Source of the DNA: a virus
Reading direction: 5' to 3' (one strand)
DNA length: 64,000 nucleotides
UHGV virus genome: UHGV-0171787
The notes beneath the pieces are model-generated. The model was given only the letters and a program-made list of their open reading frames with translations, searched no databases and had not been told where the DNA came from. Below, in pieces: positions 3,323 through 54,172 of the stretch. Position 1 is the first letter of the stretch; each line of letters begins with the position of its first letter. The position numbers and the translations under genes are program-made.

Positions 3323-4384
3323 ATGGCTAGTCCAACTTTATTTGTATCGTATGACCAGAATGGTAAAAAACTTTCTTTTGCTAACTGGATTTCTGTTCTG
3401 TCCCCTCAGGATACCCCGTTCGTATCTATGACCGGTAAAGAGTCTATCAACCAGACTATCTTTAGCTGGCAGACCGATGCACTGGCAAGCGTTGACGGTA
3501 ATAACGCACACGTCGAAGGCTCTCGTGCTGAAGACGGCGAAATGAAACCGACTGTTATCAAATCTAACGTTACTCAGATTCTGCGTAAGGTTGTTCGTGT
3601 TTCTGATACTGCTAACACCACCGCTAACTACGGTCGTGGTCGTGAACTGATGTATCAGCTGGAGAAGAAAGGTAAAGAGATCAAGCGTGACCTCGAGAAA
3701 ATCCTTCTGTCCGGTCAGGCTCGTACCGACGTTCTGGCTGACCAGTACCTGACTAACTCTGCAACTGATCCTGCTGTTGTTGGTCTGAATGACACCCATA
3801 CAGCTCGTAAGACTGGTGCATTCCAGTTCCTGTGTGCTCACGGTGGTCTGGCTGGTGGTGTTGTTGACAAGACCAAGAATGGTCCTGCTGACCCGGATAC
3901 TGGTGCAATCACTGTTAAAGTTGCACAGAATGCTTCTAACCCGACCACTAACATTGGTTTCGACGAAGCTGATATCTTTGATATGACTCTGCAACTGTAT
4001 ACCGCTGGTTCTGAAGCAGATATCATCATGATTAACCCGGCTCATGCTAAGATCTTCGCTGGTCTGCAAGAAAATACTCAGGGTTCACGTAAGCGTATCT
4101 TTGAGAACACCAAGCAGTTCATCTACGAAGTTAACAGCATCACTGACCCGCTGGGCCAGAGCTACAAAATCATCGTTAACCGTTGGATGCCTACCGATGC
4201 AGTTTACTTCTTCCGTAGCGCTGACTGGACTCAGATGGTTCTGCGTGCTCCGAAACGTACTGAACTGGCTAAAGATGGTTCTTATGAGAAATGGATGATT
4301 GAAATGGAAGTTGGTCTGCGTCACCGCAACCCGTATGCTTCCGGCGTTCTGTTCACTGCTGCGGGAAAGGTAGCGGCGGCGTAA
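3323..4384 (+). CDS. major capsid protein (zero-frame product)
   Basis: 353-aa ORF after the scaffold gene with a good RBS context (aggagctaatataacATG); canonical capsid position. Confidence 0.75.
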   Translation: MASPTLFVSYDQNGKKLSFANWISVLSPQDTPFVSMTGKESINQTIFSWQTDALASVDGNNAHVEGSRAEDGEMKPTVIKSNVTQILRKVVRVSDTANTTANYGRGRELMYQLEKKGKEIKRDLEKILLSGQARTDVLADQYLTNSATDPAVVGLNDTHTARKTGAFQFLCAHGGLAGGVVDKTKNGPADPDTGAITVKVAQNASNPTTNIGFDEADIFDMTLQLYTAGSEADIIMINPAHAKIFAGLQENTQGSRKRIFENTKQFIYEVNSITDPLGQSYKIIVNRWMPTDAVYFFRSADWTQMVLRAPKRTELAKDGSYEKWMIEMEVGLRHRNPYASGVLFTAAGKVAAA

Positions 4385-5524: not shown

Positions 5525-5586
5525 GACCTATACAAGTCAGTGTGTAATGTATATTCTTTGTCTACATATAACAAGGAGGACAACCT

Positions 5587-20260: not shown

Positions 20261-20327
20261 GACCTAAGTCCTGCCTTCTATAATGTATATAGGGGGTAGG
20301 ACATTTTTATTTATAAAAGGAGACGTT

Positions 20328-28752: not shown

Positions 28753-29318
28753 TATTAATTTCCTTATTTAATTTGAAAGATTGTTGCTCTCTTTGAGCGG
28801 TTATGTATAATATACATTACATATATAGTGTAGGAACTACCGGAAGGTAGTAGGTTTTGTCCAAACAAAAGTCTCTTTAGAGTTATTTGTTGGGGACTGT
28901 CTCTTATAAACCCGAGACTGTCTAGCAGTTACATAAGCTCTAGCTTTTTCTGTAGCTGCATACTTATGATTAAATTTCATGGTAGTATATCTCTAAGTGC
29001 TATAATATATATAAGTTATAGCTGATAAAGTTATTGCACGGGACTGACGACGATAAGGCGCAGACGACAACCTCTCATAAGTTTGTAAGAAATTGAGAGA
29101 CTACCGGAAGGGCAGGAGCCACCTGCGAGATAAAAATAGAGAATTAAGGAATCCTTGATTTAGGTTGTAGGGACTCCTAGGGACTTTGATTCTCTATTTA
29201 AAAGAATAAATAATTATTACATCTAACACTAAACAAACTGAAACAAAGATAAGAAACTTCTTATAAATACTCATTACTTATCACTTAAACAGTTAACTAG
29301 CCTCTGATATAAAGAAGT

Positions 29319-32334: not shown

Positions 32335-32619
32335 TTAACCTTTCGGGAATGGCATTAAAGATTCCATAGCAGATTTAATTTCGCTATTGATTCGAGCATC
32401 ACGATAAGAGATAAATTTACCTTTGCTATCACGTAACATTACATGGGTTCTGGCTGTTTCGTGAGGAAGCAGTGTGATACTGGTTGGGATAGTATCAATC
32501 CCTACAGGTAGTTTGTAAATAGTCTTACTCTCAGCTAGTAGGTAAGACCAAGTACATGGTTTCTTCTCCGGATGGTTAGGGTATGTATCTCTAATCTGAA
32601 CCATAGCTAATTTATTCAT
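32335..32619 (-). CDS. hypothetical protein, tandem paralog A
   Basis: C-terminus ...TARTHVMLRDSKGKFISYRD...MESLMPFPKG parallels the adjacent ORF. Confidence 0.45.
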   Translation of the reverse strand: MNKLAMVQIRDTYPNHPEKKPCTWSYLLAESKTIYKLPVGIDTIPTSITLLPHETARTHVMLRDSKGKFISYRDARINSEIKSAMESLMPFPKG

Positions 32620-32620
32620 A

Positions 32621-32872
32621 TTAAACTCCTTTAGGAAATGGGATGAGGTTTTCTATTGCAACACGGAAAGGTTTTTCTACATTCTTATTTTTATAAGAGA
32701 TGAACTTCCCATCAGCCCCACGAAGGATTACGTTAGTGCGAGCTGTATTGGGATCTAGATTGATCATAGAGGTGATGTTCTTTTTTGAGTTGTTGTAGTT
32801 GTTATCGAAAGTCCACTTATCCAGATGATTAGCTATTACATCAATAATAGTTACAGTTTTTACAATAGACAT
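32621..32872 (-). CDS. hypothetical protein, tandem paralog B
   Basis: C-terminus ...TARTNVILRGADGKFISYKN...IENLIPFPKGV parallels 32335..32619. Confidence 0.45.
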   Translation of the reverse strand: MSIVKTVTIIDVIANHLDKWTFDNNYNNSKKNITSMINLDPNTARTNVILRGADGKFISYKNKNVEKPFRVAIENLIPFPKGV

Positions 32873-32904
32873 ATTTGTTACCTAAGAAATTTAATTTAGT
32901 TTAT

Positions 32905-32938
32905 ATAAAAGAAAAGGCCACCCGATTGGGTAGCCTCA
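32905..32938 (-). terminator. rho-independent terminator
   Basis: Minus strand GGCUACCC-AAUC-GGGUGGCC followed by UUUUCUUUU; same hairpin family as 55585..55612. Confidence 0.55.
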
Positions 32939-32940
32939 TA

Positions 32941-33258
32941 TTACGATGAGCTTAAAGCTCCTTTGCGAGATCCAGCTGCTTTTCCAGCTCGATCACCACT
33001 TTTGCCGCCGTTTGAACGGTTTGAGCTGACTGATTCAACACGTAAGTTGCTTGACGCATTAGAGCCTCCAGACTTGATAGCTCGTTTGTGTCCAACATCT
33101 TTACCTCTGACAGCAGCTTTTCCATCGCGCTTTTCAACGATGCGACGTGCACGGTGGCGCTGAGCATCTCCGCTCTTGCTCCCAATGCCTGTCTCACCAC
33201 GGGCAATTGCGGTACGTCTTTCTTGTGCATAATCTCTCTTTCCTACATGGTCTGCCAT
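32941..33258 (-). CDS. basic G/S/K/R-rich low-complexity protein (KGG/YciG-like composition)
   Basis: 105 aa, with a strong RBS (taaggag) before the ATG; preferred over the overlapping alternative-frame ORF 32952..33230. Confidence 0.4.
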   Translation of the reverse strand: MADHVGKRDYAQERRTAIARGETGIGSKSGDAQRHRARRIVEKRDGKAAVRGKDVGHKRAIKSGGSNASSNLRVESVSSNRSNGGKSGDRAGKAAGSRKGALSSS

Positions 33259-33314
33259 TTAGAACTCCTTAATATATCAGTGTACACTAAGGAGTATACA
33301 TTATAAGTTACTGT

Positions 33315-34052
33315 TTAAGCTTTCTTTTCCATTGCTTTAACAATCGCCTTACAGAAACCAGAACGAACAATGTCATCCGATTCGCCGTCTACAATCTCAG
33401 CAAACTCATACAGATCGTGTTCATCAATAAAGTTAGTAGCCCAAGTTAGACCACTCTCGCGACCACGCATATCATGCTGGTTTGTATCACCCATGCAGAA
33501 CAATTGAGAGGTTTCTCCCAATCGAGTCATGATAGAGAAGGCTTCATCTTTAGTGGTGTTCTGGAACTCATCCACGATAACAATGGCATCATTGAAGGAA
33601 CGACCACGGAGATATTCCAGAGGTACAAATTCAATGTTACCATTTCCGATCTGGCATTCATAGAATCCCTTACCATATCGCTGAGTGATAACATCAATGA
33701 TAGGCATCAGGTAAGGTTCAAATTTCTCACGCATTCCTCCCGGAAGTAATCCAAGAGAATTACCCATACCAACTGAAGGACGACTAAGAATGATCTTTTG
33801 AATCTTACCGCTCTTCAGTGCATCGATAACTGTGGAGGTAATTACAAAGGTCTTACCACAGCCCGCAGGAGCGTCTGTGAACACAACTTGCTTAGTCTTG
33901 ATAGCATTGAGTAGCTCAGACTGAAACTGGTTCTGAGGGACTACAGGCTTTGCTAAAACCACCTCTTCATACTCTCGCTTACCCTTACGAGTAACGAGTG
34001 CTTCCCGACGAAGGTCTTTCCGTGATTCTTTCCGTGATTGACGACGACTCAT
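33315..34052 (-). CDS. phoH: PhoH-like ATPase
   Basis: Walker A APAGCGKT plus the GLLPG and DEFQN...GD.NQ.D motifs. Confidence 0.75.
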   Translation of the reverse strand: MSRRQSRKESRKDLRREALVTRKGKREYEEVVLAKPVVPQNQFQSELLNAIKTKQVVFTDAPAGCGKTFVITSTVIDALKSGKIQKIILSRPSVGMGNSLGLLPGGMREKFEPYLMPIIDVITQRYGKGFYECQIGNGNIEFVPLEYLRGRSFNDAIVIVDEFQNTTKDEAFSIMTRLGETSQLFCMGDTNQHDMRGRESGLTWATNFIDEHDLYEFAEIVDGESDDIVRSGFCKAIVKAMEKKA

Positions 34053-37127: not shown

Positions 37128-37661
37128 TCACACACCTTTAGACGCAACCACACCTTCAGAGTTATTATAACGACCCTTCACTGCATAAGAATGCTCTCCT
37201 GCATGAGAGTGCTCAAACATAACCATCTGACCAACACGCATACCAGAACGGATTCTTAAGCTGTGATGTTTGGTCACATTATGAAATTCAAACGTCAATT
37301 TACTGTTATTAAACCCCCCATCTGCCCACCCGGCGTGAAGATGGTTCAAACCACAACGAGCCATAGATGAACGAAGAACAAACAAGCTTGAGATGTTATC
37401 TGGAAGGTTAAACTCTTCCATAGAGTGAGCCAAGAAGAACTGACCCGGAGTAATAACCAAACCCTCTTCAGGAATCTTTACTTCCTTCCACTGAAGATTC
37501 TCTTTCGCATCAATATCAACGATGCCATCAGCCTGTTCTTCAACAAGGATAGTATCACCAATACGGATATCCACACTAGCAGCGTTAACATACTTATGCT
37601 CCGCATCCAAATAGCCATTGTCAATTACATCGTGCAGTTCAACACTTCCTAGTAAACTCAT
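37128..37661 (-). CDS. dcd: dCTP deaminase (Dcd/dUTPase superfamily)
   Basis: LRSSMARCGL, RSGMRVGQMVMFE and a C-terminal YNNSEGVVASK parallel E. coli Dcd motifs. Confidence 0.7.
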   Translation of the reverse strand: MSLLGSVELHDVIDNGYLDAEHKYVNAASVDIRIGDTILVEEQADGIVDIDAKENLQWKEVKIPEEGLVITPGQFFLAHSMEEFNLPDNISSLFVLRSSMARCGLNHLHAGWADGGFNNSKLTFEFHNVTKHHSLRIRSGMRVGQMVMFEHSHAGEHSYAVKGRYNNSEGVVASKGV

Positions 37662-53878: not shown

Positions 53879-54172
53879 ATACCCTCCAATTAAACATTTA
53901 TATAAGACTTGCTTAGATAAAGATTCAATAAATAGGGGGAGGGGACGAATCCTCCCTTATCCTATTAGTTACTATTGCATGTAAGATCTAACAATCGGTT
54001 GCCTTTGTAGGAATAAGCGTTATGCTAATCCAGCACTAAACTCCCGCCCCCTTAGTGGGCTGGGTTATTAAAGGGTAACGCCCTTATGGGCTAGTTACAT
54101 GAATGTTAGTTTGATAGGAGATCTGAAGTCCTATCTCAAAGGACTCTCGTAAGAATCCTTCACGATAAGTTC

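Follow-up and report, generated by a model that had tools for sequence, protein, structure and literature searches.

Between phoH and the DNA polymerase gene of the virus genome UHGV-0171787, of which we analysed a stretch of 64,000 nt (hereafter, the window), lies a short minus-strand ORF that raises two questions: whether it, and not the ORF that overlaps it, is the gene at this locus, and what a protein of such biased composition might do next to a DNA polymerase gene. The ORF runs from an ATG to a TAA codon, and its product of 105 aa (10,958 Da) is dominated by G (15.2%), R (14.3%), S (14.3%), A (13.3%) and K (9.5%), with G, S, R and K jointly accounting for 53% of the residues. A Shine-Dalgarno sequence, AAGGAG, occupies positions 33270-33265, at a spacing of 6 nt from the ATG. 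The initial annotation had described a highly basic Gly/Ser/Lys/Arg-rich protein with a strong ribosome-binding site (RBS), overlapped by an alternative-frame ORF that lacks such a site. This description, which leaves out only the strand, is borne out by the translation, the pI of 11.46 and the AAGGAG; the second ORF shares the strand of the first but is read in the +1 frame, and no canonical Shine-Dalgarno sequence precedes its ATG, the sequence at this position being GGAAAGAGAGATT. The account that we favour, and consider reasonably probable as a whole, is that the locus harbours a real middle gene encoding an HNH protein that nicks or cuts DNA during phage replication. The coordinates of the features discussed below are collected in Table 1.

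Several independent lines of comparison indicate that the basic frame is almost certainly a genuine, expressed gene. The window represents a phiEco32-like coliphage (Kuravirus and relatives), and a 1.8-kb query around the gene matches 99 phage records at 80-99% identity; the gene was found in each of these 99 Kuravirus-like records. The 105-aa frame matches PHROG 4590 (E = 1.5e-40), with residues 4-101 aligned to profile positions 2-99 of 100. Homologs of the protein number 76 in a set of 5.8 billion proteins, with identity down to 45%, and an exhaustive search with the family profile yielded 901 cluster representatives at E<=1e-3. Comparison of the window gene with diverged Kuravirus clades gives a main-frame dN/dS of 0.15-0.24. 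The exact 105-aa product is already public as DAF78558.1, as found in a collection of 15 billion proteins.

The orthologs from phiEco32 (gp58; YP_001671803.1) and SU10 (gp56; AIF71809.1), both annotated as 'hypothetical protein', occupy the same slot between phoH and the DNA polymerase gene, carry the same promoter and terminator as the window gene and differ from it in nothing of substance. The window protein is 97.6% identical to them over residues 1-83, the part aligned by tblastn, and phi32_58 is syntenic with the window gene and equal to it in length. A literature search on phiEco32 gp58 retrieved no paper mentioning gp58 and no experimental study of family members. The SU10 ortholog (CDS56, SU10_056) consists of 104 aa in the same frame and is listed in the mass spectrometry (MS) table of the SU10 paper as a protein of 10.8 kDa, with 2 peptides and 18.3% coverage. 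The calculated mass of SU10_056, 10,826.8 Da, equals the listed value, indicating that the detected product belongs to the main frame. Thus, the PHROG 4590 match, the homologs, the dN/dS values and the SU10 data all single out the basic frame as the gene, as had been proposed. The authors of the SU10 paper class CDS56 among the middle-gene products and describe it as one of the few middle genes common to all five C3-morphotype phages. Their MS preparation was precipitated with PEG, without CsCl purification, and also contained the DNA polymerase, PhoH, thioredoxin and the sigma factor.

Table 1. Features of the locus in the window (all on the minus strand)
Feature	Coordinates	Strand	Basis or remark
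Basic-protein CDS	32941..33258	-	ORF listing, synteny with phi32_58, PHROG 4590, SU10 MS
HNH core, codons 54-83, DVGHKRAIKSGGSNASSNLRVESVSSNRSN	33010..33099	-	H57, N71, N80 motif
Middle promoter for phage sigma factor gp36	33283..33310	-	TAATGTATA motif at 33303-33295
13-bp hairpin, ACUCCUUAGUGUA paired with the Shine-Dalgarno region	33264..33295	-	RNA fold
Intrinsic terminator, GAGGCTACCC-AATC-GGGTGGCCTT followed by TTCTTTTATA	32904..32937	-	Terminator scan
Near-invariant segment, codons 27-50, 72 nt	33109..33180	-	Alignment, 99 records, Bas87 comparison
+1-frame ORF, 92 aa, pI 6.7	32952..33230	-	Most likely not a gene

The low-complexity character that had been attributed to the product holds for the loop at residues 20-29 and for the C-terminal ~20 residues, to which it is limited, but not for residues 30-83, which are predicted to be folded (pLDDT ~78-81). 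This central part contains the signature of an HNH nuclease. The consensus of the family alignment across the core, V[D/G]HKxxxKxGGSNxxSNLRVxSxSxNxS, matches the HNH motif DH...GG...NL...CxxC[NH] with the spacing intact: the GG pair (G64-G65) precedes N71-L72, and N80 is located 9 residues past N71, which is the NLxxxCxxC[NH] spacing. In alignments of 39 and 76 sequences, H57, G65 and N80 are invariant, and the family alignments show G64, N71 and L72 to be near-invariant, each in at least 90% of the sequences. The canonical Cys positions of the HNH motif are occupied by S76 and S79, and in 178 of the 183 motif-bearing members the motif is devoid of Cys. Read against the motif, H57 would serve as the general base and N80 as a metal ligand, whereas N71 is the structural Asn.

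Profile and structure comparisons point in the same direction. Among 39 family members, 20 match the Pfam HNH family (PF01844), below threshold, and 13 match HNH_3, and one member, P0120, attains a Pfam HNH score of 23.5, versus a gathering threshold of 21.4, and matches the family profile with 98.5% probability. The window protein gave no Pfam match of any kind at E<=1, HNH included, and belongs to no NCBIfam family; given that it reaches no curated model, its HNH membership is transitive only, through relatives. A profile search of PDB sequences returned nothing relevant. In the AlphaFold2 models (mean pLDDT 66-70; 78-81 in the core, residues 30-83), a strand at residues 54-57 ends at H57, a second strand at residues 72-75 comes after N71, and a helix at residues 77-82 bears N80, so that the predicted topology is that of the beta-beta-alpha-metal fold. 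A Foldseek comparison with the PDB gave no significant match, the hits being mostly HNH proteins with the HNH-bearing type I-F Cas8 as the best one, and four matches at E<=1e-3 were obtained in a viral structure library, the named ones mostly being 'HNHc domain' or 'HNH endonuclease'. We are highly confident that the 105-aa protein is homologous to HNH nucleases and represents a zinc-less form.

Some depositors have labelled relatives of the protein 'HNH endonuclease' or 'McrA'. The ortholog in PQ863256.1 (Ptacy1479) is labelled 'Cas8 protein', presumably by automated carry-over from the HNH-bearing type I-F Cas8, and genes in its vicinity are called 'autotransporter adhesin' in other records; we regard both kinds of label as annotation noise and not as evidence. 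The PHROG 4590 domain is also found at the C-terminus of fusion proteins of 252-958 aa (P0133, P0138, P0143, P0153, P0189 and P0158), encoded on metagenome contigs at loci such as L020 (1547-3907) and L021 (4408-6768), and the N-terminal parts of these proteins have no Pfam, PHROG or PDB-sequence match, the contigs offering no informative context. The neighbours of the fusion-protein genes include one with a weak PD-(D/E)XK nuclease match.

The gene is equipped with expression signals of its own. The SU10 paper gives the consensus of the promoters recognized by the gp36 sigma factor and its position relative to the start, lists the identical 41-nt sequence as a middle promoter between CDS56 and CDS57, and reports, in a statement and in table S2, that the promoter before phiEco32 gene 58 was mapped experimentally. 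The motif TAATGTATA occurs in 4 copies in the window, versus 0.91 expected, and a run of 22 nt within the promoter (33304-33283) is invariant in all nine Kuravirus genomes aligned. Transcription would start near 33288, at the A that follows TT at -2/-1. The three further exact copies of the motif (5545-5553 and 20281-20289 on the plus strand and 28811-28819 on the minus strand) probably serve as further promoters of late and middle genes. A 10-bp palindrome, AGTGTACACT (33288-33279), is located at the putative start site.

Downstream of the promoter motif, the Shine-Dalgarno region can pair with upstream sequence to form a hairpin with a predicted energy of -14.7 kcal/mol (z = -2.69), with 3 of 200 shuffled sequences folding as well. 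The stretch from the promoter to the RBS is near-invariant in three Kuravirus clades, and the adjoining upstream sequence is not conserved. The anti-Shine-Dalgarno arm of the hairpin overlaps the promoter region from -7 to +6. Because this 5' arm lies upstream of the putative transcription start, the RBS would be masked only in read-through transcripts arriving from the phoH side, to which sequestration would accordingly be restricted. [quoted passage not shown] In the more distant relatives GAP52, LAh_8 and PaP3, the homologs likewise have a strong Shine-Dalgarno sequence upstream and a hairpin just past the stop codon. Overall, the promoter, gene and terminator form a cassette capable of high output, and, since the terminator directly follows the stop codon, the protein can exceed the products of the downstream genes.

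These features suggest the following mechanism. The ~11-kDa basic protein would comprise an N-terminal helix, a long basic helix (RHRARR), the zinc-less HNH core and a flexible Gly/Lys/Ser/Arg tail, its expression being driven by its own gp36-sigma middle promoter and strong Shine-Dalgarno sequence, with the terminator ending the transcript. The basic helices and the tail would hold DNA, and the HNH core would make single-strand nicks or structure-specific cuts by a one-metal mechanism, with H57 acting as the general base and N80 and an acidic residue as the metal ligands; with position 56 being Gly, the acidic ligand in this clade would be D54. Replicating or recombining phage DNA would be the substrate. 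A DNA-directed function for the protein, which the initial annotation had envisaged in the form of DNA binding, is plausible. For the catalytic activity of the core, we see the prospects as evenly divided, and participation of the protein in replication could, in our estimate, go either way.

One argument against catalysis concerns the residue that precedes the His. The metal-binding Asp that is usual at this position, and present in 152 of 183 relatives (83%), is replaced by Gly in the window protein and its clade, and activity may have been lost as a consequence. The HNH core could then be catalytically dead in this clade, and the protein would be an abundant histone-like architectural or DNA-coating protein that binds phage or host DNA stoichiometrically by means of its basic helices and Gly/Lys/Arg tail. 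We regard this as unlikely, albeit a possibility to be taken seriously. The pI of 11.5 would suit such a protein, and so would the combination of its own promoter, strong RBS and terminator, which suggests bulk production and thus fits stoichiometric DNA binding better than an enzyme; the strong RBS and the hairpin recur in other genera. Furthermore, the SU10 ortholog was readily seen by MS in a crude preparation despite its size of only 10.8 kDa. However, H57, N71 and N80 are strictly conserved within the Gly clade and family-wide, which would be unexpected had catalysis been abandoned. Moreover, the Gly variants nearly always keep an acidic side chain on the same face of the strand: D or E is found two residues before position 56 (D54 in the window protein) in 33 of 34 Gly variants, compared to 102 of 152 Asp variants, so that the loss of activity is not certain. 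We retain the account with a potentially active core as the preferred one.

The genomic context is informative with respect to the role of the protein. In the window, the gene belongs to a replication and nucleotide-metabolism module. Across ten lineages, the homolog is located 0.5-3.3 kb upstream of a family-A DNA polymerase gene and is co-oriented with it; these lineages are Kuravirus (the window, phiEco32 and SU10), Crifsvirus GAP52, ECO319P1, Salmonella PKM.Hi.22.6, Lahexavirus LAh_8, Bruynoghevirus PaP3, Photobacterium PhCF1.2, Escherichia PJNS034, Proteus 3H10_20 and Vibrio SJSY21. In PaP3, the homolog is found between the exonuclease and polymerase subunit genes, and in Vibrio SJSY21 it directly follows phoH, as is the case in the window. 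The gene has been inherited vertically as part of the replication module, and its universal, syntenic distribution speaks for involvement in DNA replication or processing and against a selfish homing endonuclease. Between the 105-aa gene and the DNA polymerase gene of the window, there are two tandem paralogs on the minus strand (32621-32872 and 32335-32619), both assigned to phrog_6814; the two proteins are 49% identical over the C-terminal 49 residues and end in PFPKG.

Relatives of the window phage contain extra ORFs at two points that flank the gene, corresponding to window positions ~33310-33324 and ~32959, which are insertion hot spots on both of its sides. For instance, phi32_59 separates phoH from the promoter, and two other ORFs, SU10_055 and Bas89_0051 (the second of which carries the annotation HNH endonuclease), are located at or after the 3' end of the gene (coordinates of the inserted ORFs in the relatives' loci: L001, 3986-4318; L010, 2372-2665; L016, 1809-2303). 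Such insertions, together with the HNH fold, which is the classic fold of homing endonucleases, and the 'HNH endonuclease' and 'McrA' labels on relatives, would be compatible with the gene being a free-standing selfish homing endonuclease that came to lie near the polymerase gene by chance, but this is very improbable. Homing genes are sporadic, whereas the gene studied here is present in 99/99 Kuravirus-like records and in ten syntenic lineages from several genera and families. Furthermore, at only ~100 aa, the protein is devoid of an added DNA-recognition domain, and its gene is served by a dedicated, phage-specific middle promoter and by a strong RBS.

Part of the coding sequence is conserved beyond what is seen elsewhere in the alignment. 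A 44-nt stretch (33134-33177) at the core of the near-invariant segment is identical in 9/9 Kuravirus genomes, which makes it the longest invariant run of a 3.3-kb alignment, surpassing even the promoter. The entire 72-nt segment is found at 99% identity or higher in 93 of 99 phage records, and no exact match between the window and 50 kb of phage Bas87 is longer. The gene shows the lowest pS, 0.344, of ~47 orthologous pairs in the comparison with Bas87, with the other pairs ranging from 0.51 to 0.88. The adjoining codons 14-27 vary freely. We found no signal of RNA structure in the segment (z = -0.72), only a sub-threshold, meaningless match in Rfam, and no conservation of its nucleotide sequence in other genera. 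A cis-acting DNA or RNA element, short tracts of gene conversion or of a sweep, and dual coding are possible causes, and the insertion points on both sides of the gene bear on the gene-conversion idea. The island contains an 8-bp palindrome, CGTGCACG. Elsewhere in the window, further long exact matches to the diverged Bas87 sequence are found at 37528-37592 (65 nt), 47006-47063 (58 nt) and 54111-54167 (57 nt).

Dual coding would imply that the +1-frame ORF is translated as well. In every Kuravirus relative examined, this frame is open and keeps its start and stop; it is broken in GAP52, ECO319P1, PKM.Hi.22.6, LAh_8 and the viral contig L008. Its product has no match among PHROG or Pfam families and is absent from the 15-billion-protein collection in which the main-frame product is present. 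For a stop codon to arise in the +1 frame, the main frame requires a codon ending in TA or TG, and, with only 13 L, I, V or M residues among the 105 of the main-frame protein, an open +1 frame is half-expected. Indeed, when codons were shuffled or synonymous codons resampled, the +1 frame stayed open for at least 96 codons in 5-26% of the trials, and an ORF of at least 92 codons starting with ATG was obtained in 0.5-6% of the same null simulations. The dN/dS in the +1 frame is 1.4-2.4, with pN exceeding pS, a pattern shared with other spurious alternative-frame ORFs in the window, and the substitutions include changes involving Pro and changes of charge; given that the main frame constrains synonymous sites, this ratio is uninformative alone and was used only beside the other tests. 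Most likely, the +1 ORF is a by-product of composition, arising from the scarcity of Leu, Ile, Val and Met in the main-frame protein. PaP3 provides a parallel: its orf38 (L012; AY078382.2, 4014-4283) was deposited in what is the +1 frame relative to the HNH-like gene, the true PaP3 homolog being the f+2 reading of 4014-4283. The +1 frame, which is open for 89 codons there because of the same compositional effect, misled the annotator.

We hold it highly unlikely that the +1-frame ORF is a Kuravirus-specific overprinted gene whose translation would explain the suppressed synonymous variation. In its favour, the +1 start and stop are kept in three Kuravirus clades that differ by 9-13% in the main-frame protein, ATG ORFs of this length are rare in the null simulations, an invariant run of 15 nt spans the alternative ATG, and the pS of the gene is the lowest among the ~47 pairs. 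Nevertheless, the absence of a Shine-Dalgarno sequence, the disruption of the frame in five more distant relatives, the seemingly unconstrained +1 substitutions, the scarcity of codons able to create +1 stops and the fact that the +1 product has never been called in public data all speak against it. Furthermore, the synonymous constraint is packed into 72 nt and does not extend over the whole ORF.

The near-invariant segment also invites a more elaborate reading, whereby the protein would be a replication-initiating nickase with its cis site inside its own gene (33109-33180), as in the case of gene A of phiX174 and P2 or of lambda O and ori. The dedicated promoter just upstream would activate this site, and the nick would prime synthesis through strand displacement by the exonuclease-less family-A polymerase, the gene of which is located ~1 kb downstream. 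The same reading would make the family the source of nicks in other phages: Pseudomonas phages tf and Rembedalsseter and the LUZ24/PaP3 group carry localized single-strand nicks at the motif TACTRTGMC. We consider this extended scheme a long shot. The window shows no enrichment of TACTRTGMC (3 sites, counting both strands, versus 1.87 expected), an unbiased k-mer search of the window returned no 10-mer with at least 5 copies, and the four 9-mers with 6 single-strand copies in the window share no common flanking context. The lack of an enriched nick-type motif also weighs against the favoured account of a nicking or cutting enzyme.

The suggestion of the initial annotation that the product is a KGG-repeat or stress-type low-complexity protein, or an internal protein of the virion, is hardly tenable: it would accommodate the G/S/K/R-rich composition, the disordered tail and the detection by MS in a phage preparation, but is at odds with the ordered HNH core, with the lack of PF10685 (KGG) matches for the window protein (E<=1) and for 39 relatives (E<=0.1), which largely refutes the KGG idea, with the location of the gene, which has a middle promoter and belongs to the module for replication and nucleotide metabolism and not to the late structural genes, and with the nature of the SU10 sample, which was not purified on a CsCl gradient and, as mentioned above, held non-structural products such as the DNA polymerase and PhoH.

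For the window alone, the result is mostly an ordinary one, namely, a real gene that had been rightly spotted and a guess at its family that was wrong. A near-identical ortholog had already been deposited, the HNH superfamily is well known and some relatives carried an HNH label; what emerges here is a zinc-less, polymerase-linked subfamily. The zinc-less HNH fold offers a structural and functional handle on PHROG 4590, a family of ~900 representatives, annotated almost throughout as 'hypothetical', that constantly accompanies the DNA polymerase gene in several groups of phages, some of them therapeutic (Kuravirus, Bruynoghevirus). Annotation of these genes calls for caution, given that the +1 frame tends to stay open and that at least one GenBank record (PaP3 orf38) is mis-annotated for this reason.

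Comparison with characterized HNH proteins brings out the distinctive traits of the family. Small HNH nicking endonucleases of bacteria and phages, namely, the Geobacter Gme HNH protein (PDB 4H9D), the HNH protein of phage GVE2 (5H0O) and the HK97 gp74 type, possess two CxxC zinc sites, and the genes of packaging HNH proteins are located next to terminase genes. By contrast, the 105-aa family has Ser at the Cys positions, with 178/183 members lacking motif Cys, the residue preceding the His in the window protein is Gly and not Asp, and the gene is part of the replication module. We accordingly rejected an assignment to the HK97 gp74-type packaging HNH proteins, given the lack of Cys in the motif (178/183) and the position of the gene between phoH and the DNA polymerase gene.

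Among the HNH nickases, I-HmuI (PDB 1U3E) is a homing enzyme of 174 aa, compared to ~100 aa in the family described here. It has extra DNA-binding modules, is encoded in an intron and is sporadically distributed. The members of the 105-aa family, unlike I-HmuI, are free-standing, universal in their phage groups and expressed from their own promoter. With regard to the nicked Pseudomonas phages, Bruynoghevirus and Vicosavirus genomes encode family members beside their polymerase genes, whereas the literature consulted contains no report of nicks in Kuravirus. On the strength of this co-occurrence only, it is attractive to think that the family includes the nickase behind the nicks of tf, Rembedalsseter and LUZ24; should the family prove to be an active nickase, it would be the obvious candidate for introducing the site-specific nicks into genomes of the LUZ24/tf type.
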